IMG/VR virus record: IMGVR_UViG_3300025102_000021
Span: 784-64,783 of that record
Source of the DNA: a virus
Taxonomy: Duplodnaviria; Caudoviricetes
Length of the DNA: 64,000 nt
Reading direction: 5' to 3' (one strand)
Both the position numbers and the translations under genes were made by a program. The notes beneath the pieces were generated by a model that ran no database searches, was not told the DNA's origin, and saw nothing but the letters and a program-made list of their open reading frames with translations. Below, piece by piece: positions 35,801-64,000 of this stretch (position 1 is its first letter; the number at the start of each line of letters is the position of its first letter).

Positions 35801-36139
35801 AGAGTATATTTTTTTTGTCTTATCATCTACTGTAGTTCCAACAACCTCAGCATTACTGCTAAACCCTGCTTGTCCACCAAAAGTGTAAGTATAGTTATAC
35901 CCCATAGGATAACCATCTCTATCAAACGCTTGCTCTAAGCCATCGTAAAACGGCTCGTGATAAGATATAGTATTAAGGTTATAGTTGCCAATTAAGTTTT
36001 CGACAGCGCCAACATTAGAACTCTCAGACGTAGTCACCTCTATATTTAAGCCGTGCTTATACTCACCGCTAGGAAGCAACCTTTCGTCAAGGTCTTTATT
36101 CATTTTACCTTTTTCAAAACCTCTCTTTAATTCCGGCAT
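29828..36139 (-). CDS. Tail stabilisation/nozzle protein (P22 gp10-like, crAss-like) with C-terminal beta-rich extension
   Basis: GKMNKDLDERLLPSGEY..LN N-terminus, FTDGKTEPKKINI, YRWKYEDGEVSALSPFS, GWTSFKSY, KEKEGKWFNYI. Confidence 0.8.
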   Translation of the reverse strand: MPELKRGFEKGKMNKDLDERLLPSGEYKHGLNIEVTTSESSNVGAVENLIGNYNLNTISYHEPFYDGLEQAFDRDGYPMGYNYTYTFGGQAGFSSNAEVVGTTVDDKTKKIYSLIARVLDYGVTSVGSYGNVETGVRSDAIVETPKTSQNTTKIVFSDIYEVKRPFGVIEGGKRNTKANPTATTNATTVITENYTEIIVTDSAYFNYLNGIKSGMTVQAVLPDGTNLWEANGTITVILATPQFDIPSSYLILRLSNPSTGTINLTAANLNAGAVLKFSDERLLNFEPSSKISYTDTNGSSVTSPTPIDNKITGINTFDGLLYFTDGKTEPKKINIENSKRGTLNVNPYHETKFVYKNHLGEFASEKLTLEHITVIKRSPLNPPVIKMRNTQLKGQVNKIGVTNTAGDEGAGTDFTSYTKGNAFNFTIAENVEHEKVEIALNIDSGGNYRSIKAGDKLVLKNNGYEVYLEVTDSSATTISTKFIEANALYLEKPPNQAAIKWEASLYESGKSKHPAKAMWEKQFIRIAYRWKYEDGEVSALSPFSEVCFLPRDRYSYSSKDSYNTAMINDLRELTISNFLPLGTPKDVVQVDIVAKEDKVANLYLLKTIKKGDYKVNASTGFREYEFDKDAFEGVSNAGHGRFVATGSALGSVLPSDQLLRPFDSVPRTAVAQTISASRLIYGNYKANYDLKDAAEDNIELNYNDWRGNFSLHSDPYKWQTNHSNGKFYGYPALKAGRSYSVGMVYKDRFGRESSVVIGDKYTLDIGYQRRDQIDRLRLDVAHNAPSWAEYFKFFIKESSAEFYNIPLQAHYPCNVDDNDNASEVWLSFSSADRNKVQEGDFLILKKGHSRWQDGLGATDAHISGMGDRKYKILDISNEVPDDSIPEERVPSGEDKAGKFFAKVKIDRAIIAAFGVQPGNDGSWRKYWQSDNIYSTTGGTNNPNPAIFEVEPRDKLDIPVYYEVPRTYPVKLKEQNAYEFINPGDRIYMYYKAGAQSGQTTELREEFMHDASRRRAWYNLTTTVVSVAGPEFPDGPTAVTVDTPFTLPVLHAYDSDGNGSLDTNSNNYQRAGTVWFIREDGSFATAKIWHSSSEATYGTSGTVLYIKPEVHNGMFCLPFSNCFKFGNGVESNRIQDDFNAPLMENGVKVSTTSDNYKEEDRGNGLIFSGIYNSKNGVNNLNQFISSSGITKDLNPQFGSIQILNARDTNITTVCEHKAVKVLANKDALFTASGANQVTSTKNVLGQTVPYAGEFGIGTLRSSFINEEFRSYFVDPHRNKVLRLSNDGLTAISDAGMGDYFGDALDEISAAVGSYNRDKGEYDLTLHYNVTSTSKTVETISYSEFVKGWTSFKSYVPDAGVSLDSNYYTMVGGLVYLHDEKNYSGGDVARCNYYGTQYKSSITTIFNDAPAAVKSFQAINYEGTQSKIIKPDVSVDNSGASVSSGSSDSITLATSNTAIAAGQTVSLDDGIKVGVVKSISGTSLTLVDNVAATVGGGDALIFSDNEYYNNTAVNGWSVESIITDKQRGSIHEFKEKEGKWFNYIHGDELDGSNLPTSQEFNVQGLGRIDSIGFGGATFGTSTVSLTTTLTGDGASTTTVVVPSSTIQNGANQNTLGTQSIVLTAPACGAITSANITVGTLPSGITSVSVPSAQTIMPGNTITLTVTLSSAVISSNTSYAIPIEVDLVDICQDHEFQVTINQPVNYTYDISGLSDYSVFAPSYDASGNATFNLSGQSQLYSTSGAAQETFSATFTAQPGYVFSADDFDPTEAFNTASHWSYTEVYTYNGEGQPTAVTYTYSYQGQADNPDPSDDGISALDLVTFPSPTMNDGDVEVEEQVIPDSLTRNVSVVMVDNTTGLSLANASVQGISAEVMDGDNQNTLQSLSMVITPNLGFDLAAAADFSTTGLTITTNAGTANTNDITVSYSDGAFGTVLVDVLFGSLTITEDVVYTVKIRESEEVTASTSGQSFTVAIVNTAGTETPILTAGTGYSATQTVNASDDSSENDVFTVSSDGGTTVGTTQRTVATVVIETDSGLSFGTGAGEHDMALSVDDISRWEVSYALSANSDGDANGKVTYTIKYTGTGTSNTFDPVDTLKTQKVQLT

Positions 36140-38230: not shown

Positions 38231-38239
38231 GTAATAATT

Positions 38240-38288
38240 TTTTATGGATTAGAGTGGCTGCTCAACGAACAACCACTCCTCCATAAAG
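38240..38288 (-). promoter_or_regulatory. Long intergenic RNA hairpin
   Basis: Minus strand TTTATGGA-G-GAGTGGTTGTTC-GTT-GAGCAGCCACTC-TAA-TCCATAAA. The G-U pairs form only on the minus strand. Confidence 0.65.
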
Positions 38289-38291
38289 TAA

Positions 38292-39134: not shown

Positions 39135-39157
39135 AATATAATATAATAATAGTTAAT

Positions 39158-39193
39158 AAAAAAAATAAAGGGGAGAACTTAATCTCCCCTTTA
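39158..39193 (-). terminator. Rho-independent terminator after the major capsid gene
   Basis: Minus strand TAAAGGGGAGA-TTAAGT-TCTCCCCTTTA followed by T8. Confidence 0.88.
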
Positions 39194-39204
39194 AGTAATG
39201 TTGC

Positions 39205-46435: not shown

Positions 46436-46710
46436 TATTTAGATCTACCTTCAGCAAAACCTTTAAAAACTCTTTCCTTTTTTTCTTCTACAACTTTACC
46501 ATCAAGCAAAGCCTGCTCTTCTTGTATACGATTAAGTATTTCAAAGGCATCGAATATAGCTAGCTTTTTTGTAGCCGCAGCATTTTTAAGTCTATCAGCG
46601 GTAATGTCATCACCACTATCAACAATAGCTTCTTTAGCCACTTTAATAAGTTCTTCAACTGCTCTATGCCCAGCTTGGATTATACTCTTCTTCGTCTCCT
46701 TGATATTCAT
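46435..46710 (-). CDS. Putative terminase small subunit
   Basis: Helical 91-aa protein coupled directly to terL. Confidence 0.5.
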   Translation of the reverse strand: MNIKETKKSIIQAGHRAVEELIKVAKEAIVDSGDDITADRLKNAAATKKLAIFDAFEILNRIQEEQALLDGKVVEEKKERVFKGFAEGRSK

Positions 46711-47272
46711 ATTTAATTGTAATAAAATTAGACATTACTCTATACAGCCTTTTTCCATCTATAACAAACTCATACTCAGAGCTAGGCCTAAAGCCTACTA
46801 AGTCTCCTATGTTTACAGTACCGTCAGAGTATTTAACTACACCTACTAGTGGTTTTTCTTTTTCTGCAGAAAAATCTTTATTGTCTTTTATAGGTTGAAT
46901 AAAACAATATCCTTTAGGCGCTTCCCACTTAGAATCTTTAAACCTCGTCCAGTTTGCATGAGGTTTATACAAGAATATTTGATCTTGATAAACTACATAA
47001 GTTTCTTCGTCGAAATAGTTCTTGCTATTTCTTTCGTTACCGTATTGATCCTCCCATCTTCTAAAAACGTTGTGGTGAACTATAACTGTATCGCCGGGTT
47101 TTATACCCAACGTATCTTGATGAGTAGGTACGCTTATAACTTTAGCCTCTCTGTTGACAAACTGATGATTGAAGTTTTCAGAGTTTACAATTAGCTCTTT
47201 GTCACCTACAGACTTTGTGTTATTGTATCTAGACCCTAACGGTCTTACAACAAAACCGTAAACGCTTTTCAT
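46664..47272 (-). CDS. Tandem GroES-like domain protein
   Basis: AKVISVP...IKPGDTVIV and GVVKY...VNIGDLVGF...EFVIDGKRLY: two GroES-like halves. Confidence 0.6.
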   Translation of the reverse strand: MKSVYGFVVRPLGSRYNNTKSVGDKELIVNSENFNHQFVNREAKVISVPTHQDTLGIKPGDTVIVHHNVFRRWEDQYGNERNSKNYFDEETYVVYQDQIFLYKPHANWTRFKDSKWEAPKGYCFIQPIKDNKDFSAEKEKPLVGVVKYSDGTVNIGDLVGFRPSSEYEFVIDGKRLYRVMSNFITIKYEYQGDEEEYNPSWA

Positions 47273-52561: not shown

Positions 52562-52819
52562 TTAATCTACTAATACAATATCACTTGATTTAATAACAAA
52601 ATAAAGTTTGTCATCAAACTCTATTCCATGCCCAGCTCTTTTGTCATAGTACACCGTGTCGCCGTCTACAACACCCTCTACTAAATTGCCTGTTGATACA
52701 ACTAAACCTTTTAAATATCTAGTATCCTCAGCAAGCTCTTCAGTTAATATAAGACCACCTACTTTCTTTTCAGTGGTCTTTATTTTATCTACAACTACGT
52801 AATTATTTATTGCTTTCAT
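52562..52819 (-). CDS. groES: Co-chaperonin GroES
   Basis: KKVGGLIL mobile loop, GLVVSTG, GDTVYY, SDIV. Confidence 0.9.
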   Translation of the reverse strand: MKAINNYVVVDKIKTTEKKVGGLILTEELAEDTRYLKGLVVSTGNLVEGVVDGDTVYYDKRAGHGIEFDDKLYFVIKSSDIVLVD

Positions 52820-54377
52820 AATCTTCTTGTCTAGCGTTTGAAATTACACAATCTGCAGATACTATAGTGTTTACTACGCTTACCGCGTTTTTTAGCGCCG
52901 ATTTTGTAACCAAAACCGGATCTATTATTCCTGATTTAACCATATCAACCTCTTCGCCGGTAACAACATCAACGCCGCGCCCATACTTAGATGGGTAGCC
53001 TAGCATTTCAAAACCAGCGTTCTGCATTATAGTTATAAATGGAGCTTTAATAGCATCGAGAAGGATGCGTTCACCCTCGTTAGAGGGTTCGATTTTTTGA
53101 AAAGCGTTAAGGAGGGCAATACCACCTCCAGGTACTATACCTTCTTTCAAAGCTGCTTTTGTTGCGTAGATCGCATCTTCAACCCTATCCTTCTTTTCTT
53201 TGAGCTCGACTTTAGAATCAGCACCGACCTTAATAACGCCAACTGAACCTGATAGCATAGACAATCTTTGTTCCAGCTTCTTTTTAAAAAAACCATTCTT
53301 TTCATCAGCTATTAGTTTGTTTACTTGATCTATTCTTTCTTCTAGTTCTTCAACGTCCGTATCTATGGTTAGTACAGTAGTTTTATCGTCTGTAGCTGAG
53401 TATTCAGCTTCTCCAAGCATTTCTATAGTCATAGAGTCTAGATCGTCCCCTAGCTCTTCGTTTAGCACAGTGGCACCAGTAAGTATAGCTAGATCTTCGC
53501 AAGTATCCTTTTTGGTAGGACCAAAGCCTGGTAAGTCGATAATATTAACTTTAATATTGCCTTTTACCTTGTTCATTAAAAGCGCAGACTTTACTTGCTG
53601 CGATACTGTCGCTACTATAAGTAAAGATCTGTTCTGTTTTATAACGTACTCTAATATGCTCTGTATTTTACGTACGTTAGGTATTTCAGACATGCATATT
53701 AATACTAGAGGATTATCTAGCTCTGCTTTTTGTTTGTCTGTGTTTGTTACGAAATGAGGTGATGTTAACCCACAGTCTATTTGCACGCCGTCAGTTACAT
53801 CTACGTAAGTTTCTTCTGTCTCAGACTCTTCCATTATAACAACACCATCTTTACCTACTTCATTGTAGGCCTGCGCTATTATAGCTCCAAGCTGAGAATC
53901 GTTGTTGCAAGATATTGAAGCAACACTTTCTAGCGTTCCATCAGTAACTTCTATCTTTATAGAATCTAAATAGTCGTTTATCTTGACTAATCCAGACTCT
54001 ATGCCATTCCTTACTTCTCTTGCTGTTGCACTATCTTTAGAACTGTTGATAGTGTTTAGTAGTGATTCAGCTAGTACTGTAGCGGTGGTTGTTCCATCAC
54101 CTGCTTCTCTAACTGTATTCTTAGCAGCTTCTTTTATAAGTGTTGCTCCTAAGTTTTCTACCGGATCATATAAGACTACGCTTTCTGCAACGGTTACACC
54201 GTCTTTTGTGATCACCGGTATGCCGCGCGCGTCTTCATATATAACGCATCGGCCGGATGCTCCAAGTGTTGATTTTACTGCTTTAGCTAGTTTTTCAACA
54301 CCAGCACCAATTTTAGATTTAGCATCCTGACCAAAGTTTAGTTCTTTGATCAGGAGACTAGGATTGTTGTACTCCAT
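52803..54377 (-). CDS. groEL: Chaperonin GroEL
   Basis: ITKDGVTVA, AGDGTTTATVLA, PGFG, KEKKDRVEDA, GIVPGGG, GIIDP. No GGM tail. Confidence 0.97.
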   Translation of the reverse strand: MEYNNPSLLIKELNFGQDAKSKIGAGVEKLAKAVKSTLGASGRCVIYEDARGIPVITKDGVTVAESVVLYDPVENLGATLIKEAAKNTVREAGDGTTTATVLAESLLNTINSSKDSATAREVRNGIESGLVKINDYLDSIKIEVTDGTLESVASISCNNDSQLGAIIAQAYNEVGKDGVVIMEESETEETYVDVTDGVQIDCGLTSPHFVTNTDKQKAELDNPLVLICMSEIPNVRKIQSILEYVIKQNRSLLIVATVSQQVKSALLMNKVKGNIKVNIIDLPGFGPTKKDTCEDLAILTGATVLNEELGDDLDSMTIEMLGEAEYSATDDKTTVLTIDTDVEELEERIDQVNKLIADEKNGFFKKKLEQRLSMLSGSVGVIKVGADSKVELKEKKDRVEDAIYATKAALKEGIVPGGGIALLNAFQKIEPSNEGERILLDAIKAPFITIMQNAGFEMLGYPSKYGRGVDVVTGEEVDMVKSGIIDPVLVTKSALKNAVSVVNTIVSADCVISNARQEDYESNK

Positions 54378-55699: not shown

Positions 55700-55981
55700 C
55701 TAGTGCGTTTTTCTAGTTTTAAACATGCCTAATTTCTTTACTGGGTTTCTATTTACGCCAGCAACAGGCTTTGGCCCACGGTAAAACATACCACTAGACC
55801 CTTGTTTTGCTTTATTGTTTGGATTAAACTCAGAAGACTCGTTCATTTCACCGGGCTCTCTACCTTGTGCTCTTGCAGCTGTAGCTTTTGGATCAGAACC
55901 AGGGCCACCAGCTAGGTTAGCACACTCTTGTTGTAAGCTTCTACTTTTTCTTTTACCGAATAATTTGTATGGTGATTTCAT
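55700..55981 (-). CDS. Small basic protein (first late gene)
   Basis: MKSPYKLFG. Preceded by GTGATAATA. Confidence 0.65.
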   Translation of the reverse strand: MKSPYKLFGKRKSRSLQQECANLAGGPGSDPKATAARAQGREPGEMNESSEFNPNNKAKQGSSGMFYRGPKPVAGVNRNPVKKLGMFKTRKTH

Positions 55982-56000
55982 AGTTATTGTTTTACCTTTA

Positions 56001-56009
56001 TATTATCAC
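56001..56009 (-). promoter_or_regulatory. Putative late promoter element GTGATAATA
   Basis: The same GTRATAATA occurs on the minus strand in intergenic gaps at 29432-29440, 27008-27016, 16091-16099 and 12867-12875. Confidence 0.55.
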
Positions 56010-56031
56010 GTAAACATAGATAAACGTTAAA

Positions 56032-56085
56032 AGTGTGACAATTGCCCCTTACTCTTACTTTCTTAATAGCCTAGTGTCACAGTTT
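56032..56085. promoter_or_regulatory. TGTGACA-N34-TGTCACA dyad, copy 2 (at the divergence point)
   Basis: AGTGTGACAATTGCCCCT...TAATAGCCTAGTGTCACAGTTT matches 1370-1421. Confidence 0.7.
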
Positions 56086-56226
56086 TGATATTGTAAATAT
56101 AGGAGTATAGTGTAGCCCCTACCTTTCTACCTACCGCCCCCTAATACAAAAGTCAAACCTTTTAGCCAGCCCTACCTCGTCGTTTCCATTTCCGTTTATC
56201 GTTTTGTTTTTGTGTATAGCATTTGT

Positions 56227-56259
56227 ACAAATCAACTACGATACTATATAGATATTATA
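56227..56259 (+). promoter_or_regulatory. Putative early promoter, copy 1
   Basis: ACAAATCAACTACG-N10-GATATTATA. Confidence 0.7.
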
Positions 56260-56302
56260 TATGTAACAAATAACTAATATTAACTTAAATAAATTAAATA
56301 CT

Positions 56303-56536
56303 ATGTCTACATTAAATCTCACTAAAAAGCGTTTCGTAATCTCTAAATCTTTAATCGGTCAAAATGCGATCATTACATTCACTAATAAAAAGAATGAAAC
56401 GTATACTTACGATCACGATGCAGTATACTCTGCTAATCAAGAAAAGTTTGAAACTATGAATTGCTTTCAACAATATGGTAATTACACTAACAGTAATAAC
56501 TTACCAACTTTCGCTAGAGAGTTTCAAGTAAAGTAA
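56303..56536 (+). CDS. Early protein, paralogue of 57779-58012
   Basis: KKRFVISK.LIG...FTNKK...YDHDAVY..NQEKFETM.CFQ.YGNYT is shared. Confidence 0.85.
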   Translation: MSTLNLTKKRFVISKSLIGQNAIITFTNKKNETYTYDHDAVYSANQEKFETMNCFQQYGNYTNSNNLPTFAREFQVK

Positions 56537-56582
56537 TACTGACGAGATCTCAATGATCGAAACTACTTCGGTAGTCTATTAC
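56533..56582 (+). ncRNA. Hammerhead ribozyme, type I (copy 1); predicted cut after GUC at 56576
   Basis: GTAATA-CTGACGA-GATC[TCAAT]GATC-GAAA-CTAC[TTCG]GTAG-TC-TATTAC: full core and three stems. Confidence 0.93.
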
Positions 56583-56593
56583 AATCTAATAAT

Positions 56594-56626
56594 ACAAACC
56601 TAATACGAGGTATATCGGATAATATA
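56594..56626 (+). promoter_or_regulatory. Putative early promoter, copy 2
   Basis: ACAAACCTAATACG-N10-GATAATATA. Confidence 0.78.
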
Positions 56627-56660
56627 ACTGAATATAAACTAATAAATAAATTAAATTACT

Positions 56661-56828
56661 ATGCAAGATTACATTACTCACTACGTTACTGGATTCGAAA
56701 ACTTAAAAACAATACTTGATCAATTGTCATTAGATCCACTAGTTGAGGATTACACCTATGAGATTGAATCACGAGGAGAAACTGATGATGATCACTTCTA
56801 CTTTGTACAGATTCTTACAACAAAGTAA
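56661..56828 (+). CDS. Small acidic early protein (55 aa)
   Basis: Hand-translated MQDYITHYVTGFENL...VQILTTK. A/T-rich leader. The stop lies in hammerhead stem I. Confidence 0.7.
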   Translation: MQDYITHYVTGFENLKTILDQLSLDPLVEDYTYEIESRGETDDDHFYFVQILTTK

Positions 56829-56879
56829 TACTGATGAGATCTTACAGATCGAAACACTCGGGAACGTGTGTCTATTACT
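56824..56879 (+). ncRNA. Hammerhead ribozyme, type I (copy 2); predicted cut after GUC at 56872
   Basis: AGTAATA-CTGATGA-GATC[TTACA]GATC-GAAA-CACTCG[GGAA]CGTGTG-TC-TATTACT. Confidence 0.93.
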
Positions 56880-56897
56880 AAACTAATTAATACTAAT

Positions 56898-56987
56898 ATG
56901 GAAATTATACATGATATTACTATACTAATTACACTTGGAATTATTTTACAATTTATTGAAAAGTGTATTGTTCACTCAGAGAAGTGA
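56898..56987 (+). CDS. Small hydrophobic peptide (29 aa)
   Basis: MEIIHDITILITLGIILQFIEKCIVHSEK. Confidence 0.4.
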   Translation: MEIIHDITILITLGIILQFIEKCIVHSEK

Positions 56988-57040
56988 TGGTATACTACAC
57001 AACAATTATTATTCACTAAACAAACAAACTACTTTTACTT

Positions 57041-57169
57041 ATGTTCAAAAATACACAAAAAGAATACATACAATACTTAGAAACTCAAATGAATTACTTT
57101 AAAAGATTTGATAAAGATATGTATATTCACTACAGAAATAAACTTCGTAAAGTATTGAATACAAAATAA
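57041..57169 (+). CDS. Small early protein (42 aa)
   Basis: MFKNTQKEYIQYLETQMNYF...VLNTK. The stop overlaps promoter copy 3. Confidence 0.5.
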   Translation: MFKNTQKEYIQYLETQMNYFKRFDKDMYIHYRNKLRKVLNTK

Positions 57170-57193
57170 ATACGGAGTCAATCAGATAATATA
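57161..57193 (+). promoter_or_regulatory. Putative early promoter, copy 3
   Basis: ACAAAATAAATACG-N10-GATAATATA. Confidence 0.8.
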
Positions 57194-57275
57194 TATGAAT
57201 TTAAACTTATAATAATATAAATTAAATTCTTTAAATAAAATAAAATTATAAACTTTTAAAATTAAATTATATACT

Positions 57276-57512
57276 ATGTCAAATACTATTAAAAACTCTC
57301 AAATCAAAATCTTAAAAATAAATAATAAAACTTATTTACCATATCAATTACATCAACTTCCAAAGTTCTTTGATAAATATACAACTGACTTCTTTAACTT
57401 AAAAGGTTACTGTTATATAAACTTAGAAGATCACTCTGATAATTTTAATCTTCAAAACTTTAAAAATAGATTAACATTCCATAAAAACTTATCAGGTAGT
57501 TTATCTCGATAA
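57276..57512 (+). CDS. Early hypothetical protein
   Basis: 78-aa ORF. Confidence 0.7.
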   Translation: MSNTIKNSQIKILKINNKTYLPYQLHQLPKFFDKYTTDFFNLKGYCYINLEDHSDNFNLQNFKNRLTFHKNLSGSLSR

Positions 57513-57544
57513 CAAATTAAATACGGACAAGTACAGATAATATA
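57512..57544 (+). promoter_or_regulatory. Putative early promoter, copy 4
   Basis: ACAAATTAAATACG-N10-GATAATATA. Confidence 0.8.
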
Positions 57545-57569
57545 AATGAATCTAATAAATAAAAAGAAT

Positions 57570-57767
57570 ATGTCAAAGAAAATAATTAATAAAGTTGTAG
57601 ATGAAACAGTAGATACAATAATAGATAATATAGATGAAGTACTAGTAGATTATATGTATGAGTATGGAGACTATGAAGAGTCAGACGATGTATTCTTTGA
57701 TAATAAAGAAGAAATGTTTGTCAAGGTAATAATAGAATTAAATAATAGAATTAATAACAATAAATAA
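57570..57767 (+). CDS. Small acidic early protein
   Basis: MSKKIINKVVDE..., D/E rich. Start moved to leave a leader after the promoter. Confidence 0.65.
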   Translation: MSKKIINKVVDETVDTIIDNIDEVLVDYMYEYGDYEESDDVFFDNKEEMFVKVIIELNNRINNNK

Positions 57768-57778
57768 AATTAGAAATT

Positions 57779-58012
57779 ATGTCAAATGTAGTAGAAAAAA
57801 AGAGATTTGTAGTCTCAAAAGGATTAGTAGGTAAAGGAGTAGTAATACAGTTTACGAATAAAAAAGGTGATACGATCAAGTATGATCACGATGGTGTCTA
57901 CGCTCTCAATCAAGAGAAACTAGAAACTATGGAGTGTTTCCAAAAGTATGGTAACTATACTTCATCAAACAATATTCCTTCATGGGCGAAAGGTGCTCAG
58001 ATCGAAGAGTAG
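57779..58012 (+). CDS. Early protein, paralogue of 56303-56536
   Basis: Both are 77 aa and clearly colinear. Confidence 0.85.
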   Translation: MSNVVEKKRFVVSKGLVGKGVVIQFTNKKGDTIKYDHDGVYALNQEKLETMECFQKYGNYTSSNNIPSWAKGAQIEE

Positions 58013-58166
58013 TGTAAATAAGTCGAAAGATCGCTCCACGTGGTGAACAACGTAAATCGTGGTACTACTAAAATAAAGTCCAGTTAGTTTAGTGTTTACT
58101 GGTAAATCAAATATGAACACATAAGTGTAAATGGTTAATGGTGGTTCGACTCCACTCTACACTACT
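58009..58166 (+). ncRNA. tRNA-like structured RNA (acceptor-like stem + T-arm enclosing a pseudoknot)
   Basis: GTAGTGTA (58009-16) pairs with TACACTAC (58158-65). T-arm GGTGG-TTCGACT-CCACT. Inner CCAGT/ACTGG stem whose loop GTGTTT can pair with GAACAC. Confidence 0.55.
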
Positions 58167-58196
58167 AAAATATTAACATTTAAAAAAATAGAAATT

Positions 58197-58454
58197 ATGT
58201 CAAGATTACATAGAGAAATACTAAAAAATCAGTTGTTCAACCACGACTACTCTAATACACCAGTAAATAAAATGATACTTGTCGAGTTAGAATACTCACA
58301 AATAACAGTACAAAGTGAAGGCCCTCAAGGTTTCACTCACTACAAAACTTCAGGTGGTAGTTTAGAAAATCTAATCGAACAAATGAATCAAAGAGTTGAG
58401 AAAAGCCCTGACTATGATTTAATAATAGTAGACAAGTCAGACAAAATTTGGTAG
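58197..58454 (+). CDS. Early hypothetical protein
   Basis: Start MSRLHRE follows the leader AAAAAAATAGAAATT. Confidence 0.7.
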   Translation: MSRLHREILKNQLFNHDYSNTPVNKMILVELEYSQITVQSEGPQGFTHYKTSGGSLENLIEQMNQRVEKSPDYDLIIVDKSDKIW

Positions 58455-58456
58455 AT

Positions 58457-58489
58457 ACGAAATAAAAACGAATAAGTACAGATAATATA
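58457..58489 (+). promoter_or_regulatory. Putative early promoter, copy 5
   Basis: ACGAAATAAAAACG-N10-GATAATATA. Confidence 0.72.
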
Positions 58490-58496
58490 TACGAAT

Positions 58497-58700
58497 ATGA
58501 AAAACAAATACATTAAAAAGATAATAGAACTCGAGGAGTTACTAAAACATCACGACTGGTACTACGCAATGAGTGACGATCACCGTTACTACAGTTCAGG
58601 TCGTAAAAGTTTCGAGAAGATATGGAAACTAATGGACGAATTAAAGAATAATAATTATGGTGTTATGGCGGAAAACCTATATGACACTTATAAAAAATAA
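58497..58700 (+). CDS. Early protein resembling the NAD-ligase N-terminal (Ia) helix pair
   Basis: ELEELLKHHDWYYAMSDD. Confidence 0.6.
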   Translation: MKNKYIKKIIELEELLKHHDWYYAMSDDHRYYSSGRKSFEKIWKLMDELKNNNYGVMAENLYDTYKK

Positions 58701-58704
58701 TAAT

Positions 58705-58911
58705 ATGAAGATAACAATACAACAAACAGGTAAAACTTATATCGCTAAAGACAGCGAAGAAGTAAAAGTAATACATAACCACGACTCTATAATAAAGATC
58801 GCAGGTGAATATTACAAGAACGTAAAAACAAACGAGTGGATCAGTGAAGACGAATACTACGACTCACTCTGTCTAAAATTTGAAGAAGATGAATCAAACA
58901 AATATTACTAA
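58705..58911 (+). CDS. Early hypothetical protein
   Basis: Start MKITIQ is just after the upstream stop. Confidence 0.65.
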   Translation: MKITIQQTGKTYIAKDSEEVKVIHNHDSIIKIAGEYYKNVKTNEWISEDEYYDSLCLKFEEDESNKYY

Positions 58912-58971
58912 TTACGAGGAGTTCGACAAGTGGCTTGAAGAACTAATTGTTAAAAACGGAACAACAGAATT

Positions 58972-59238
58972 ATGAAGAAAATTAAATTAACACTAGCAAC
59001 TGTGCTACTAGGTAGCGCGGTTTTTGCTCAAACACAGTGTACTGCACTTACAAAATCTAATAATCAGTGCAAAAATACTGTAAAACAAGGTGAATTATGT
59101 CACCTACATGACCCAAACTACGTAAAACCGAGTGAAACTGTCACTGTAACCTGCTCTGGAACTACTAAATCTGGAGATCCTTGCAAAAAGAAAACTAAAA
59201 ATGCAAGTGGTTTATGTTACTTACACAAGCAAGACTAA
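58972..59238 (+). CDS. Exported protein with two C-x3-T-K-x4-C...C-x2-H repeats (DUF5763-like)
   Basis: Signal peptide ending VFA-Q. Repeats QCTALTKSNNQCKN...LCHLH and TCSGTTKSGDPCKK...LCYLH. Confidence 0.75.
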   Translation: MKKIKLTLATVLLGSAVFAQTQCTALTKSNNQCKNTVKQGELCHLHDPNYVKPSETVTVTCSGTTKSGDPCKKKTKNASGLCYLHKQD

Positions 59239-59312
59239 TGTTTAGTTGGTGTTGGGTGATCGCTGCGGTTTGGTATTTATCTGTAGCGATATACAGAGAA
59301 GACGCAAATTAA
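59238..59312 (+). CDS. Possible 24-aa membrane peptide
   Basis: TAATG coupling. MFSWCWVIAAVWYLSVAIYREDAN. Confidence 0.35.
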   Translation: MFSWCWVIAAVWYLSVAIYREDAN

Positions 59313-59336
59313 ATACGAATACTAATAGATAATATA
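59304..59336 (+). promoter_or_regulatory. Putative early promoter, copy 6
   Basis: GCAAATTAAATACG-N10-GATAATATA. Confidence 0.78.
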
Positions 59337-59343
59337 ATTGAAT

Positions 59344-59823
59344 ATGAAAATAAACAACTTTATAGCGACAGCAGTAGCAGCTACTCTTGCGCTAACCTCT
59401 TGTGAGAAAACAGACTATGATGTGCAGTTTGACAGAGACGCTCACGTAAAAATTATGAGTGAAAACTATGTTAAAACCACAGCAATATCTAGTTGTACTG
59501 GTCTCGACACTAGTTGGACAGTTGATTTTGGCGTTGCTATGTGTATTAATGTAGCAAACCTGCCTGGTATTGACGACGTTCGCTACGATGAGTATGAGTT
59601 CTACGCTATGCTCGACGGTAGAAAAGTGAAAGGCTTTCAAAACCTAAAAGACCAGATAAGCGACAGAACACAAGGTCTAATCGATGGAAATATTAACGTA
59701 CAACTTTCAGGTCACACTGACCTAGCGGTATACTTATTACACGAAAACATGTACAAAGCTCAGTTCTTTGTAGAAAACGGTGATGGTCAACTGTTCGAGT
59801 TGCAACTAAAAGAATTATACTAA
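59344..59823 (+). CDS. Lipoprotein
   Basis: MKINNFIATAVAATLALTS-C-EKTD lipobox. Confidence 0.8.
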   Translation: MKINNFIATAVAATLALTSCEKTDYDVQFDRDAHVKIMSENYVKTTAISSCTGLDTSWTVDFGVAMCINVANLPGIDDVRYDEYEFYAMLDGRKVKGFQNLKDQISDRTQGLIDGNINVQLSGHTDLAVYLLHENMYKAQFFVENGDGQLFELQLKELY

Positions 59824-60212
59824 TGAAAAAAATAACACTATCAGTTGCGCTACTACTAGGTAGTTATGTGACTAAAGCGCAGACAGAATACATTGATGTA
59901 GCTAAAGTAGGTATGTTAGGTACTTCTACTATGGCTATATACAACGATGACAAGGATTTAGATGACTTACAAGTGTTTAAACTAAACTTGTTTGACAAAA
60001 GTGAAATTTATCACTGGGTAAAATACACTAGTCTGTACAACGACAAGGTTGTAATCACTATGTCAGACGACGAAGGTGACACAAGAGAATTGTGTACGAA
60101 ACATGGTGACGAAGAAACTTTTTGTGAAACTGTTTCATCTTTTTCTACATCATACGAGCTCACTACAGATTCGCATGTATTTCAAGTATGGATTTCAAGA
60201 CCTAAAAAATAA
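59823..60212 (+). CDS. Exported protein
   Basis: Signal peptide MKKITLSVALLLGSYVTKA-Q. Confidence 0.75.
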   Translation: MKKITLSVALLLGSYVTKAQTEYIDVAKVGMLGTSTMAIYNDDKDLDDLQVFKLNLFDKSEIYHWVKYTSLYNDKVVITMSDDEGDTRELCTKHGDEETFCETVSSFSTSYELTTDSHVFQVWISRPKK

Positions 60213-60216
60213 AATT

Positions 60217-60318
60217 ATGAATAGAAAATTTAATCATCAAGATTTAGCTATGATCGGTGGGTTTATAGCTATAGTAACAGCAATAATGTTTAACTTAATA
60301 AACACAGGCACAGTATGA
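60217..60318 (+). CDS. Small membrane protein (33 aa)
   Basis: MNRKFNHQDLAMIGGFIAIVTAIMFNLINTGTV. Confidence 0.6.
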   Translation: MNRKFNHQDLAMIGGFIAIVTAIMFNLINTGTV

Positions 60319-60479
60319 AGAAAAAAACAATAACAGTATTAGATTACTCGAGCGCAAGAGTGTTTCAGTATAGCGTAAAAATTAACGTACACTCTGAAGA
60401 GTTTATACAGTTTAAAGGTCATAGACTTAAAGACGTAGAATGGATGGAACACCAAATAAGTAGTATTATTACAAAATAA
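60315..60479 (+). CDS. Small early protein (54 aa)
   Basis: MKKKTITVLDYSSARVFQY...EWMEHQISSIITK. ATGA coupling. Confidence 0.6.
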   Translation: MKKKTITVLDYSSARVFQYSVKINVHSEEFIQFKGHRLKDVEWMEHQISSIITK

Positions 60480-60503
60480 ATACGATTACTTTCAGATAAT
60501 ATA
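60471..60503 (+). promoter_or_regulatory. Putative early promoter, copy 7
   Basis: ACAAAATAAATACG-N10-GATAATATA. Confidence 0.8.
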
Positions 60504-60538
60504 TATGACAATTGCGTGTTAAATAAAAAATAAAAATT

Positions 60539-60751
60539 ATGAACTATTGTAGATGTGGTGAGCCCGTACACCCAGTAAGACAAAAATACGGGTACAAAAC
60601 GTGTATGCCTTGTAGTGGCGTCGAGCGTGTAGCGTCGGCACCGATCACTAATCATAAAACAGGTAATACAATACAAATAGTATCGCAAGCACAATCAATA
60701 GCGATACACAAGGCTAGTCGCCGTAAAGGTTACGGTACTTGTCTTAGATAA
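60539..60751 (+). CDS. Zinc-finger protein (DksA/TraR C4-like spacing)
   Basis: CRCGEPVHPVRQKYGYKTCMPC. Confidence 0.65.
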   Translation: MNYCRCGEPVHPVRQKYGYKTCMPCSGVERVASAPITNHKTGNTIQIVSQAQSIAIHKASRRKGYGTCLR

Positions 60752-60756
60752 TACTA

Positions 60757-61158
60757 GTCAGGTTTAACAATAAGCGAAGCAGTAGAAGTACTGTGGAAGT
60801 CGAAGTAGTAGCGGCGCTGGACCACGGGTCGCGAGTGTCAATACAAACCCTACTACACCTGACGCCGGTATAAAGTAGGTGGCATCACTGCGTAAAGTTA
60901 CCGCAACCCGGCTCACCGGAAATCGGTTCCTACTTTATAATATACGAGCGTGGCGCGTGAGGTGCGTAGCGGAATGACTGGTAAGTGAGATTATATCAAG
61001 AACTTACTCAAGGTGAGCCGCGTCTTACTCACTTGGCCACCTCGTTTTTAATACGTGTAGAACCAGCGGATTTAATCGGTTCAGGGCTAGGTATGGTAAC
61101 CGCGGCGTAAGCAAAGGTTTACTACTGACGAGTATGAGGTTCGATTCCTCACTAGCTA
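60757..61158 (+). ncRNA. Unidentified ~400-nt structured RNA with long-range pseudoknot and 3' tRNA-like module
   Basis: GC-elevated gap with no sense ORF of 60 aa or more. Helices 60757-63/60857-63, 60805-11/60850-56, 60869-79/60929-39, 60909-17/61012-20. T-arm TGAGG-TTCGATT-CCTCA. Confidence 0.7.
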
Positions 61159-61190
61159 CAAAATAAATACGACACGAGTCGGATAATATA
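61158..61190 (+). promoter_or_regulatory. Putative early promoter, copy 8
   Basis: ACAAAATAAATACG-N10-GATAATATA. Confidence 0.8.
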
Positions 61191-61207
61191 ATTAAATAAA
61201 TAACAAT

Positions 61208-61528
61208 ATGAAAAACACTAATGAAATAGAAAAGCAATTACAGCGTAAAGCTGACAAGTACCTCGAGCAAAAAGCAAAAGAAATGTTTGAAATACACAGA
61301 GAGATAGCTATGTATTTAGGTGGTTCTCTTCCAAGCTATATTGACTACATCACTGACTTTAGTGATTACAGTAAAGATATAACGGCAAACAGAGGTAAGT
61401 ATTTTACGTGTAGCTCTCCTTCATCAATGGAGTTCAAGTTCCAGAAAGATCTAGAGAAAAATTACAAAGAGAAAATTGTAACTAAATACACAAAAGAATT
61501 ATTAACTAAACTAGATATATTTGAATAA
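61208..61528 (+). CDS. Early hypothetical protein
   Basis: 106-aa ORF after the promoter. Confidence 0.75.
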   Translation: MKNTNEIEKQLQRKADKYLEQKAKEMFEIHREIAMYLGGSLPSYIDYITDFSDYSKDITANRGKYFTCSSPSSMEFKFQKDLEKNYKEKIVTKYTKELLTKLDIFE

Positions 61529-61529
61529 T

Positions 61530-62048
61530 ATGGAATACATGTCAACAGAAATAAGATCTGCCCGCGAGGCAATGACTATCTTCAAGATACTAGGTATCAA
61601 AGATATTACAACAGAGCGTCAACGTAAAAACGGCACAACAGTATATGAATTACCAATACAACAAATGTGGCAAACACTTAACCCTAAACCTTTGCGTTTT
61701 GCTACGTATGCCGCAGGTTATGTACGTAATGTAAGTGAGTACAACTCAAGTCCTTATCAAATTAACAAGACTAGAAAAGTATCAACACGAACAAGTGGTT
61801 ATGCTTACGATACAGTTGAGCGTATAATGATACCACACTGGGAAGACAGGCTAATATACTTAGCTAAGTTCATTATCAAGAACTACTACCAAAAACCTAC
61901 GTACGTAATGAATGACTACGTTATGAAGTGTTTACGTGAAGCTTATTACGAGCAGAACAAAACAGGTTTACCATTTCATGAAGAAGGCGATATGCATTCG
62001 CCAGATATTAAAGTAATTATTAACGGACACAGATACAATTTATCATGA
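61530..62048 (+). CDS. Early hypothetical protein
   Basis: ATG start MEYMSTE. IKDITTERQRKNGT...GYVRN. Confidence 0.75.
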   Translation: MEYMSTEIRSAREAMTIFKILGIKDITTERQRKNGTTVYELPIQQMWQTLNPKPLRFATYAAGYVRNVSEYNSSPYQINKTRKVSTRTSGYAYDTVERIMIPHWEDRLIYLAKFIIKNYYQKPTYVMNDYVMKCLREAYYEQNKTGLPFHEEGDMHSPDIKVIINGHRYNLS

Positions 62049-62260
62049 GCGCATTTTACAAAGACACAAGATTTAACGGCAAACTAGTTAGACTAGAAGA
62101 CGTTATAGATGAAATATACGATAGAGCATTAGAAACTATAGACGAGAGCTTGTATGAGCTTCTAAACGACAAAGACGACGATGAGTTCTATGAGGATTAC
62201 AAAGAAGCTTTCCCTCTTATAGTAGAAAAGCTACAAAAGTTTCATGATGGCGAAGATTAA
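62045..62260 (+). CDS. Small acidic protein
   Basis: 71 aa, D/E rich. Confidence 0.7.
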   Translation: MSAFYKDTRFNGKLVRLEDVIDEIYDRALETIDESLYELLNDKDDDEFYEDYKEAFPLIVEKLQKFHDGED

Positions 62261-62384
62261 AATAAAGCTAGACAAAGAAACTTTAAAAGCTATATGGGAT
62301 GCTAGCAAGCCTAACATAGAGCGTAATAAGAAAAAATATACTCGTAAAAGTAAACACAAAACAAATACGAATACTAACGGATAA
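62247..62384 (+). CDS. Small basic protein with ArfA-like tail (45 aa)
   Basis: Hand-translated MAKIKIKLDKETLKAIWDASKPNIERNKKKYTRKSKHKTNTNTNG. Confidence 0.55.
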   Translation: MAKIKIKLDKETLKAIWDASKPNIERNKKKYTRKSKHKTNTNTNG

Positions 62385-62388
62385 TAAT
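62356..62388 (+). promoter_or_regulatory. Putative early promoter, copy 9
   Basis: ACAAAACAAATACG-N10-GATAATAAT. Confidence 0.75.
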
Positions 62389-62411
62389 ATAAACCAATTA
62401 AATAAACCATT

Positions 62412-62783
62412 ATGACTACAACAGAATTACAAGCAAAGATCGAAGCTTTGCAAGCAGCTCTCGAAACCAAAGCGCAAGAGCAAAACGCGTATCGAGGTCA
62501 AATTGATACACTTAAAAAACAACTAGCAGACTTAAACAAACCAAAACTTACAATGAAACAGTTTGACGAGCTAACAACGTTTGTTGAATGCGGTATCGAA
62601 GAGTTTGACTTTGATGATCTTGATAACTACAGTATAGACTACGGTATTGACTATGATAACAGAATAACGTGTGAAAGCTTTTGCTTTGATAACGTTGATG
62701 AGCTTGCTAGAGTAGTATGCGAAAAAGTATACACAATGTTCGGTGAAGCTAACGAAGATACTAACGAAGAAAACCAAGACTAA
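62412..62783 (+). CDS. Coiled-coil/acidic early protein
   Basis: N-terminal heptads and an acidic C-terminal half. Confidence 0.75.
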   Translation: MTTTELQAKIEALQAALETKAQEQNAYRGQIDTLKKQLADLNKPKLTMKQFDELTTFVECGIEEFDFDDLDNYSIDYGIDYDNRITCESFCFDNVDELARVVCEKVYTMFGEANEDTNEENQD

Positions 62784-62784
62784 T

Positions 62785-63021
62785 ATGAAAACACTGTATC
62801 AACAACTAAAACCAGAAGTTAAACAATCACTAAACGAGCAAGAAGAATTATATCCTACGCTAGTTAAAGGTATTAAATGTGCATTGCAAGAAAATTATTT
62901 GTGGTCACACTTATCAATCGGCCAAGCAAGAGATCTTGTAAGTTTTACAAGTATATCTCTTAGCAGCATGTCTAGTTACGACTGGTCGTATGGCGAAAAA
63001 TTTCTTATAGCAGATGAATAG
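62785..63021 (+). CDS. Early hypothetical protein
   Basis: Start MKTLYQQLKPE. Confidence 0.7.
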   Translation: MKTLYQQLKPEVKQSLNEQEELYPTLVKGIKCALQENYLWSHLSIGQARDLVSFTSISLSSMSSYDWSYGEKFLIADE

Positions 63022-63215
63022 TCCATGGGAAGTTATGAGGCCTAAACTCAAGGAGCTTGGGTACTCAGATGAACAAATAGATGATATGACACTAGCAGAA
63101 TTATTCGAACTATGCGAAGATTAATATACGACATGTACTATGCCGACGAGATTACTCAAGACATAGCGGCAAGACTATTAGATAAATTAACAGAACTTTC
63201 AAATAAAAAACGAAG

Positions 63216-63467
63216 ATGACAAAAACAGAATTACCAAAATGGTTTAACGGCACGACCTACGATGAAGGTGCCGAAGTAACTAACCGTTTCGGCGGTGACA
63301 GTTGCTACTTAAATGCAGAAGAATTAAGTATGTATGACTTTGTTATCGGAGCAACAAACATGATTGAGATGGGTTGGTTTCACGACTCACTACTGCGAGA
63401 TCATAGAAGAGGTCTTGACTGGTTTAGAAAGAATAATGCCGAAGCTTACATGATATTACTAGACTAG
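63216..63467 (+). CDS. Early hypothetical protein
   Basis: VTNRFGG...ELSMYDFVIG...GLDWFRKNNAEAYMILLD. Confidence 0.75.
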   Translation: MTKTELPKWFNGTTYDEGAEVTNRFGGDSCYLNAEELSMYDFVIGATNMIEMGWFHDSLLRDHRRGLDWFRKNNAEAYMILLD

Positions 63468-63550
63468 TATGATAGCTATAGCACTGTCAGCAATAGTCTT
63501 TTTGATATTTATAGAGGCTTTAATAGAAAAACATAACAATTATAAATAAT

Positions 63551-63823
63551 ATGGATATAACAGGAGAAAATATAGAAAACTACATTAGGCAAGAGTTAGA
63601 CTCTGAGCCTAGACATAACTGTATGGCGTTAGCAGAAGCTATCAACCATATTGCAGACGAAGTTGATTACGACTCATTTGCACTCATGCAGTTATTACTA
63701 GAAAACAAACCAATAGATGCTTTGCATACACACAGTTATGGCTTTCACACCGCTAACGGTAGATCGCTGATTGAAGGTATGCAGAACACGTATTATGAGG
63801 AGGTACAGTTTTATGTCGACTAG
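63551..63823 (+). CDS. Early hypothetical protein
   Basis: 90-aa ORF. Confidence 0.7.
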   Translation: MDITGENIENYIRQELDSEPRHNCMALAEAINHIADEVDYDSFALMQLLLENKPIDALHTHSYGFHTANGRSLIEGMQNTYYEEVQFYVD

Positions 63824-64000
63824 AGCACAAGTTAGATTTGCTACACGTGAAGAAGGAGTATCGTTTAGCGAGCATCCAAATGCTATACACGCACAGTTTT
63901 ACGCGCATAGTGATGGTTACCCTGAAGCGCTAGGTTTAGAGATAGCAGATTCTCTCTTGTCCAACTATCCATTGAATGGCTGGGAAATAGAATCTCTTGA
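63813..64000 (+). CDS. Early protein with HxDGYP motif (3'-truncated)
   Basis: MSTRAQV...YAHSDGYPEALG, open to the window end. Confidence 0.7.
   Translation, partial: MSTRAQVRFATREEGVSFSEHPNAIHAQFYAHSDGYPEALGLEIADSLLSNYPLNGWEIESL

Follow-up and report, generated by a model that had tools for sequence, protein, structure and literature searches.

The IMG/VR record IMGVR_UViG_3300025102_000021 describes a circular podophage of about 64.7 kb in which a long, promoter-like DNA element recurs ten times, nine copies lying in the stretch analyzed here (the window: 64,000 nt, bases 784-64783 of a 64,783-nt record rated 100% complete). The element keeps its strand, internal spacing, and genomic position throughout a clade of related phages, occurs together with a gene for a phage sigma factor, and does not match the primary-sigma (sigma-A) promoters of the likely host group. 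We suggest, with moderate confidence, that host core RNA polymerase (RNAP) carrying this phage sigma factor reads the motif and that the ten elements are promoters of the rightward block of genes; where transcription starts, which sigma domain contacts which box, and what reads the motif are all inferred from the DNA and protein sequences. Transcription has been described for very few Bacteroidota phages. In this clade, a single 42-bit signal, linked to a sigma-28-like factor encoded by the phages themselves, appears to serve all the rightward genes, in proposed hosts that lack such a factor.

A repeated element on the rightward strand

A pattern search allowing up to 3 mismatches returned exactly nine matches in the window, all on the + strand and at the places given by the initial annotation of this DNA (four copies exact, the remainder with 1 to 3 mismatches), and none in 100 dinucleotide shuffles. 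When the whole record was scanned on both strands with a position-weight matrix, exactly 10 sites emerged, scoring 36.3-54.1 bits, with the next-best scores at -1.1 (+ strand) and -4.0 (- strand); the count of nine therefore holds for the window but not for the genome. The ten copies cover about 8.0 kb of the circular genome, and each lies upstream of a + strand open reading frame (ORF), as had been claimed:

56227-56259, + strand: copy 1, the weakest (36 bits, GATATT for GATAAT); predicted start 56263, then a 77-aa ORF at 56303-56536
56594-56626, + strand: copy 2; predicted start 56630, then an ORF at 56661-56828
57161-57193, + strand: copy 3, exact; predicted start G 57197, then an ORF at 57276-57512
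57512-57544, + strand: copy 4, exact; predicted start G 57548, next ATG 57571
58457-58489, + strand: copy 5; predicted start 58493, then an ORF at 58497-58700
59304-59336, + strand: copy 6; predicted start 59340, then a lipoprotein-like ORF at 59344-59823
60471-60503, + strand: copy 7, exact; predicted start 60507, then an ORF at 60539-60751
61158-61190, + strand: copy 8, exact, adjoining the 3' end of a 406-nt G+C-rich noncoding stretch; then an ORF at 61208-61528
62356-62388, + strand: copy 9; predicted start 62392, then an ORF at 62412-62783
record positions 287-319, outside the window and 496 nt before window base 1: copy 10, found by the weight-matrix scan

Since transcription from copy 4 is predicted to start at 57548, the ATG at 57546 is probably not a start codon. 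The consensus, tTTACAAAcTAAATACGA-N7-T-n-GATAATATA-w-a-T-R, holds about 42 bits over 47 positions, and the conserved element, which begins upstream with T(T)TAC and extends to a T-purine four bases beyond GATAATATA, is longer than the 33 bp first assigned to it. GATAAT is 98-100% conserved at five of its six positions and 87% at the last; after GATAATATA, the third base is T (67%) and the fourth G or A (52/47%), while the central 7 positions of the element carry 0.1-0.4 bits each. No inverted repeat common to the ten copies was seen by eye, no tool being run for the purpose.

The record ends overlap by 116 nt with 1 mismatch, so that the genome closes as a circle of about 64,667 nt. The rightward block extends from 56303 across the record ends to about 11166; it opens with some 20 small ORFs without family matches and continues with genes for a ligase, a DNA-binding protein, a 207-aa helix-turn-helix-like protein, the sigma factor, Erf, and an exonuclease, as well as a primase-helicase, ThyX, MazG, and ribonucleotide reductase. 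The leftward block (55981 to 11288) encodes GroEL/GroES-like proteins, terminase, portal, and virion proteins, including two of 2103 and 3605 aa. The host is probably a member of the Flavobacteriia, given that the relatives of the terminase and portal (28-63% identity) belong to podophages of Flavobacterium, Cellulophaga, Tenacibaculum, and Maribacter and that Bacteroidota-style signal peptides can be read in the translated N termini of several early ORFs. A megablast search against named phages gave no match.

The check proposed in the initial annotation, a motif scan of this genome and its relatives in full, gave ten sites here and 88 in the set of 11 complete genomes made up of this phage and ten relatives (site threshold, at least 18 bits); all 88 lie on the strand of the small-ORF and replication block and none on the opposite strand. 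A further 80 sigma loci from IMG/VR hold 430 sites on the strand of the sigma gene and 1 on the other. The distance from the element to the next ATG-initiated ORF of at least 35 aa has a median of 23 nt and is within 60 nt for 80 of the 88 sites; for random nearby positions the median is 93 nt, and 31% of them fall inside the 60-nt limit. The spacer of 10 nt, said to be invariant, proved to be so in a test with a loose two-box pattern in the 11 genomes, which gave 78, 3, and 4 hits at spacers of 10, 9, and 11 nt on the motif strand and 7, 10, and 9 on the opposite strand; a peak of 63 at spacer 12 represents the same sites read two bases earlier.

An IMG/VR scan that specified only the two inner boxes matched at least 180 stretches, and in the 208 distinct sites among the matches listed, the unspecified flanks were conserved too, with T-T-A-C-A-A-A-n-T-A upstream and T-purine downstream. 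Of the 26 long contigs examined, 24 form one clade, whose terminases are 72-81% identical to that of this phage (13 examined), and contigs with several copies have them all on the same strand, barring one stray match in genome G005. The long end repeats of G013 and G005 were set aside, for their apparent copies differ in sequence and are more likely to be joined strain variants. The family looks abundant in the sea, judging from the at least 180 matching stretches, the 254 relatives of the sigma factor confirmed in IMG/VR, the 7893 proteins returned by a sigma search at E = 1e-5, generic sigma factors included, and the 24 listed sequencing runs that contain the region, which by run label are marine and viral metagenomes; in three RNA or possibly-RNA runs, just 5-7% of the words of the region were present. 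Word searches of the literature, which are not sequence searches and do not show that it is unpublished, found no description of the motif or the clade.

The element had been described as confined to the early region. All copies here do lie in the rightward block, but some relatives have copies downstream of the sigma gene, preceding replication genes, and the element thus marks the whole early and middle strand block, not only the first genes. When uncultured flavophages are annotated, it could help to mark out their early and middle transcription units.

Genes present in at least 9 of 10 clade genomes and in none of three outgroups include those for the sigma factor, the 207-aa protein, Erf, ThyX, and MazG, besides a 45-aa ORF, three small proteins of the leftward strand, and the 77-aa protein that comes first among the early ones. 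Most early ORFs of genome G000 have 0-2 homologues among 10 genomes. The paralogous 77-aa early proteins (56303-56536 and 57779-58012, + strand) are the sole small early ORFs kept in 9 of 10 relatives; three outgroup phages lack them, and no family matches to them were found. MW202828.1 (L253-L256), the nearest motif-free phage, has another repeat, seven palindromic copies of CGGTGT-N6-CGACAC.

Promoter-like geometry and a phage sigma factor as candidate reader

Strand bias, distance to ORFs, and geometry together give the element a promoter-like character. If the conserved T-purine, seven bases downstream of the hexamer, about where sigma-70-family promoters start transcription, is taken as -1/+1, GATAAT would be a -10 hexamer at -12 to -7, TTACAAA would lie at -38 to -32, i.e., in the -35 position, and a third conserved box, TAAATACGA, would lie at -30 to -22. 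Two boxes at a fixed spacing, with a -10 hexamer that has A at -11 and T at -7, are what defines promoters of the sigma-70 family, and the element may be read as one of these with an extra box, on a start site deduced from sequence alone.

The promoters of sigma-28 (FliA), TAAA-N15-GCCGATAA, offer a close likeness, as the phage GATAA would fall at -12 to -8 on the same numbering, and the A-rich phage box, at about -35 to -32, would have nearly the same register as theirs. In the solved open complex of Pseudomonas sigma-28 at the fliC promoter (PMC12784957), the elements are (-15)GCCGATAA(-8) and (-36)TCTAAAG(-30); the phage counterpart of the latter would be ACAAA, from -36 to -32. There are differences: the sigma-28 -35 box is TAAA, whereas the phage box is CAAA, shifted by one base; CGATAA itself is found only in some lineages, such as G009 and G022; and TAAATACGA fills the phage spacer, whereas the spacer of sigma-28 promoters is reported not to be conserved.

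The element had been judged foreign to the Bacteroidota primary sigma, and the comparisons supported this. Primary-sigma promoters of this group, the same group as the probable host, have TTTG at -33 and TAnnTTTG at -7 about 19-21 nt apart, and neither box occurs in any of the ten copies, at any sensible spacing, on the motif strand. Phage phi14:2, which infects Cellulophaga, is reported to have its middle genes transcribed by host polymerase from a tripartite motif. Two such promoters that we read from its genome, TTGAC-N18-TATATTTG and TTGCA...TACTTTTG, are of the -33/-7 type, and the present element resembles neither. Nor does it resemble any of the classes in the transcription start site (TSS) map of Flavobacterium psychrophilum, which reportedly comprise only sigma-A variants (TAnnTTTG), sigma-54, a TAnnTTGY class, and an extracytoplasmic function (ECF) class, in an organism there credited with sigma-A, sigma-54, and seven ECF sigmas. 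A strict sigma-A pattern that recovers the known phi14:2 promoters occurs in our genome twice on the + strand and twice on the - strand (1 and 4 times in a reversed control), in unremarkable places and never at the motif, and at no consistent position in the ten relatives. A scan for the Escherichia coli-type -35/-10 consensus gave 38 hits against 35.4 +/- 6.9 expected, without enrichment in the region. We also considered the motif read on the reverse strand as a Bacteroidota promoter and rejected it on reading, since TAnTTTG is one base short and a -33 box is missing.

Behind the motif copies, within the same block, lie two genes that could supply a reader:

2033-2782, + strand: sigma-70-family factor, 249 aa, nearest FliA/sigma-28
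1410-2033, + strand: 207-aa protein with a weak helix-turn-helix signal, its stop overlapping the sigma start

The sigma gene lies 2.5 kb downstream of the last motif copy. Its product passes the cutoff of TIGR02937 (63.9 bits against 42.9; E = 1.3e-17), with FliA_WhiG as the next-best family, and its best solved relative is Aquifex FliA (E = 2.9e-10), the alignment pairing KRIRGAIRR with LRIKGAIYD in the helix that reads the -10 element; its predicted model (pLDDT 76.7) matches sigma chains with a probability of 1.00. A profile search found no other sigma-like domains in the phage proteins. Region 4 of the protein is conserved clade-wide, as expected if it reads the conserved -35 box.

Gene and motif go together. 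Among records with a completeness of at least 90%, 13 have at least 5 motif copies, and every one of these encodes the sigma factor; of the 58 sigma loci with at least 5 kb of upstream sequence, 57 hold at least 2 motif copies, L283 being the exception. Phages phi14:2, phi38:1, elemoA, and MW202828.1 (large terminase, TerL, 65% identical) have neither the sigma factor nor the motif, and the three that were scanned, phi38:1, elemoA, and MW202828.1, contain no repeated two-box motif of this kind. In 19 related loci, the gene for the 207-aa protein likewise stands immediately before that for sigma, of which the protein may be a cofactor; a complex prediction for the two proteins scored 0.00, which argues neither for nor against binding.

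We propose a scheme in which the ten elements would drive the rightward early and middle gene block, host core polymerase carrying the sigma-28-like phage factor would read them, and the 207-aa neighbor might read the third box, TAAATACGA. Flavobacteriia are not known to have flagella. Phage-encoded sigma factors that redirect the host core polymerase are described for SPO1 and phiEco32. The proposal resembles cascades of the SPO1, phiEco32, and T4 type in that a phage sigma factor is joined with information-rich, phage-specific promoters; in those systems, however, host-sigma promoters drive the early genes and the sigma genes, whereas here the sigma gene stands behind the phage motif and no host-type early promoter was found. 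The agents of such redirection include gp28 and gp33/34 of SPO1, gp36 of phiEco32, and gp55 of T4. If the scheme is right, the sigma/promoter pair could become an orthogonal expression switch in Bacteroidota.

Several points weigh against this scheme. In all 11 genomes, the motif cluster comes first and the sigma gene after it; in G009 and G022, a copy immediately precedes the gene. No sigma-A-type promoter was found at a sensible place ahead of the sigma gene. A sigma gene behind its own presumed promoter needs a seed, and in the usual phage cascade, a phage sigma factor reads the next class of genes rather than its own. The co-occurrence of gene and motif is at the level of the clade (TerL 72-81% identical among motif genomes, 65% to the nearest motif-free phage) and could reflect shared ancestry only. 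Covariation of sigma residues with promoter variants across 55 loci followed no clean rule, although one case is suggestive: in G009, recognition-helix changes of R to I and Y to T accompany TTTGCAAAC in all nine sites. The protein falls short of the NCBIfam cutoff for FliA/WhiG (TIGR02479, 53.1 against 189.6 bits), and the extended -10 GC of sigma-28 promoters at -15/-14 is absent: position -14 of the phage element is mostly T (60%), and G/C is conserved neither there nor at -13. Finally, full copies of the element stand ahead of ordinary Flavobacteriaceae genes in five metagenome-assembled genomes (MAGs) without a relative of the phage sigma factor at E = 1e-5, which hints at a cellular reader.

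The puzzle that these points raise is the source of the first sigma molecules, for which the candidates are weak transcription by the host, sigma carried in the particle, and some conserved element within the divergent control region.

Alternative readers of the element

The cellular copies merit description before they are weighed. When 185,579 species genomes were scanned for a pattern that fixed 20 bases, 40 stretches matched, 23 of them in Bacteroidota-titled records and many on short phage-like contigs in bins. We examined 15 stretches. Several of these belong to Flavobacteriaceae MAGs, where they are embedded in chromosomal contigs as long as 1.39 Mb, with RecG, Mfd, ParAB, and BCCT among the flanking genes. 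What follows the copies there is varied: genes for small secreted proteins, for a TerB-like protein, or for a membrane protein of about 450 aa, and an operon that encodes a trypsin-like protease. Five such genomes (G027-G031, regions L384-L394) have full element copies, 1-3 per genome, and together show 10 places that match 22 specified bases with no more than 3 mismatches, where the reversed control gives 1. Promoters of this type are either read by a cellular factor, or else the host genes behind them are wired to the phage sigma.

We regard the first of these, in which a host alternative sigma factor, or sigma-A with an activator, reads the element and the phage sigma then activates the leftward late genes, as an unlikely explanation, but one of some substance. 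It would solve the seeding problem, and the sigma gene does stand behind the motif, as the early-to-middle scheme of SPO1 (PMC13401047) would predict. Also in its favor are the full tripartite copies with 0-1 mismatch in 22 bases ahead of diverse genes in chromosomal contigs, in excess of the control, and the lack of a phage-sigma relative in these genomes, although the incompleteness of the MAGs makes that absence weak evidence. On the other hand, the element matches none of the six TSS-mapped promoter classes reported for a Flavobacterium; the host copies are few and sporadic, and it would be unusual for a whole early program to depend on a minor factor; phage relatives that lack the sigma factor lack the motif as well; and the late boxes GTrAyTATA and the - strand GATAATATA (both described below) have no -35 partner for the conserved region 4 of the sigma factor.

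Two further readings, which even taken jointly we consider doubtful, retain the phage sigma factor as reader. In one, the particle contains sigma, alone or together with the 207-aa partner, and injects it. The initial annotation had proposed that the first-expressed genes need a factor delivered from the virion; this found no support, inasmuch as no polymerase was detected, the 3605-aa and 2103-aa proteins included, and the phage encodes its own sigma factor. With the sigma gene behind the motif, a packaged sigma would rescue the idea of virion delivery in a changed form, and in that case promoter specificity would arrive with the phage, whose program would run from the first minute without host sigma. 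We know of no case of a packaged, injected sigma factor. In the other reading, the chromosomal motif copies are sentinels that keep host operons silent until a sigma factor of the phage family appears. Here the protease operon is of interest: its protease domain matches models of defense-system proteases, and the C-terminal 70-aa domain of an adjoining operon protein (L391:7751-8797) resembles the conserved first early protein of the phage (56303-56536; paralogue 57779-58012), with E values down to 4e-11 across about 40 distinct phage genomes. Such copies would be a defense or a satellite wired to the invader's own sigma and, if they respond to it, a new kind of infection sensor.

A phage RNAP carried in the particle and injected with the DNA, as in N4, crAss-like, and phiKZ-like phages, is in our judgment very improbable as the reader. 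Two leftward genes bear on it:

16103-26920, - strand: 3605-aa polyvalent protein with AAA_33/Zeta-toxin-like kinase, LPD14, and DUF5763 signals, most of it without a detectable family
29828-36139, - strand: 2103-aa protein with the crAss muzzle C-terminal domain (PF25729, E = 1.5e-09)

The muzzle domain marks a virion module that is, by its protein matches, crAss related, though the genome is only 65 kb and without a detectable virion polymerase. The place of the 3605-aa protein is that occupied in crAss-like phages by the polymerase and ejected cargo, and as no family covers the greater part of it, a very divergent enzyme is conceivable; a repeated, nonhost signal at the start of the genome of a podophage with crAss-like parts is itself reminiscent of the promoters read by the virion polymerases of N4, phi14:2 (gp66), and phiKZ/AR9, and no sigma-A-type early promoter was found. 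Searches of PHROGs, Pfam, and Protein Data Bank (PDB) sequences with all large ORFs, also as 750-aa pieces, nonetheless gave no polymerase signal. The DxDxD metal motif is absent from open frames of at least 150 aa, D.D.D occurring in frames of at least 100 aa only in one of 304 aa and one of 142 aa; phmmer with phi14:2 gp65 and gp66 found nothing below E = 0.17; and the ESM Atlas returned nothing usable for the middle of the 3605-aa protein (residues 1101-2450). A large virion protein with DFDxD and homology to gp66, the mark of a crAss-like virion polymerase system, was not found.

Polymerases of the N4 type are proteins of about 3500 aa that recognize a short conserved promoter hairpin; the ten phage copies share no inverted repeat that could be seen by eye, and the 3605-aa protein, mostly unassigned, shows kinase-like, LPD14, and DUF5763 domains only. 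The form of the element also speaks against such an enzyme. A T7-type promoter is a contiguous block of about 23 bp accompanied by a gene for a single-subunit RNAP, whereas the motif consists of two or three boxes around a weakly conserved 7-8-nt core and no such gene was detected; two boxes at fixed spacing in -10/-35 geometry disfavor a virion-delivered polymerase in their own right. In addition, the early transcripts made by gp66 of phi14:2 reportedly have no common motif.

As a separate observation on the 3605-aa protein, its residues 3542-3568 contain cysteine-pair DUF5763 repeats, which are also found in a small secreted early protein (58972-59238, + strand).

That the element is no promoter at all, but an operator or protein-binding site present in several copies, or else a cassette whose recombination reshuffles the early genes, is scarcely credible: the early ORFs between copies do vary strongly among relatives, as around mobile regulatory cassettes, and the third box has no counterpart in standard sigma promoters, but strand biases of 88:0 and 430:1, a tight distance to start codons, and a -10-like hexamer with a conserved pyrimidine-purine 7 nt downstream point to transcription starts, and a role in shuffling would add to promoter function rather than replace it.

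Leftward genes, control region, and RNA elements

Upstream of the leftward genes, we noted one candidate signal:

55999-56007, - strand: GATAATATA, 17 nt before the first - strand gene (ATG 55981), without upstream boxes

This may be the -10 element of a leftward (late) promoter. The sequence GTrAyTATA stands 5-35 nt ahead of several late genes in the relatives, without a -35 partner, and its excess on the late strand over the other is only about 1.7-fold (55 against 33). At 38231-38291 and 39135-39204 (- strand), terminator hairpins are followed by short A+T-rich leaders with boxes before late genes; the boxes of such leaders in this genome and its relatives (TTATTATATyAT, CTATAAATAA, and GTAACTATA) share G-N2-A-N-TATA with the early -10 region, and they may be late promoters that consist of a -10 element only. 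The divergent control region between the two blocks (55982-56226) is conserved across the clade and contains a long inverted repeat, GTGTGACAnTAGCC ... GGCTAnTGTCACAG, a C-rich tract unusual at 37% G+C, and a AAAGTCAAA...CCAGCCCC box; replication or packaging might begin in this region, or it might contain a signal for immediate-early expression. Among the leftward genes, two encode chaperonin-like proteins that are also common to the outgroup phages:

52803-54377, - strand: GroEL-like protein (PHROG 5725, E = 4.7e-134)
46664-47272, - strand: GroES-like protein

Two motifs resembling hammerhead self-cleaving ribozymes, at 56533-56582 and 56825-56878 (+ strand), directly follow the stops of the first two early ORFs and precede the next promoter copy. 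They have the parts of a hammerhead (stem I GUAAUA/UAUUAC, CUGAnGA, stem II, GAAA, stem III, and a GUC cleavage site), and their minimum-energy folds form a three-way junction; a strict hammerhead descriptor finds them in this genome only, among 11, and Rfam does not report them at E values up to 1. At gathering thresholds, Rfam reported nothing in the window, and a search of 55900-64000 at E up to 1 gave only a subthreshold tRNA match, a tRNA-like element at 58086-58164 (+ strand) with 21.7 bits against the tRNA gathering score of 29; ARAGORN found no tRNA. The 406-nt noncoding stretch ahead of copy 8 (60752-61157, + strand) has a fold z-score of -1.97 and ends in a T-arm-like hairpin that adjoins that copy, and in locus L353, a tRNA-like 3' end likewise stands directly before a copy of the motif.

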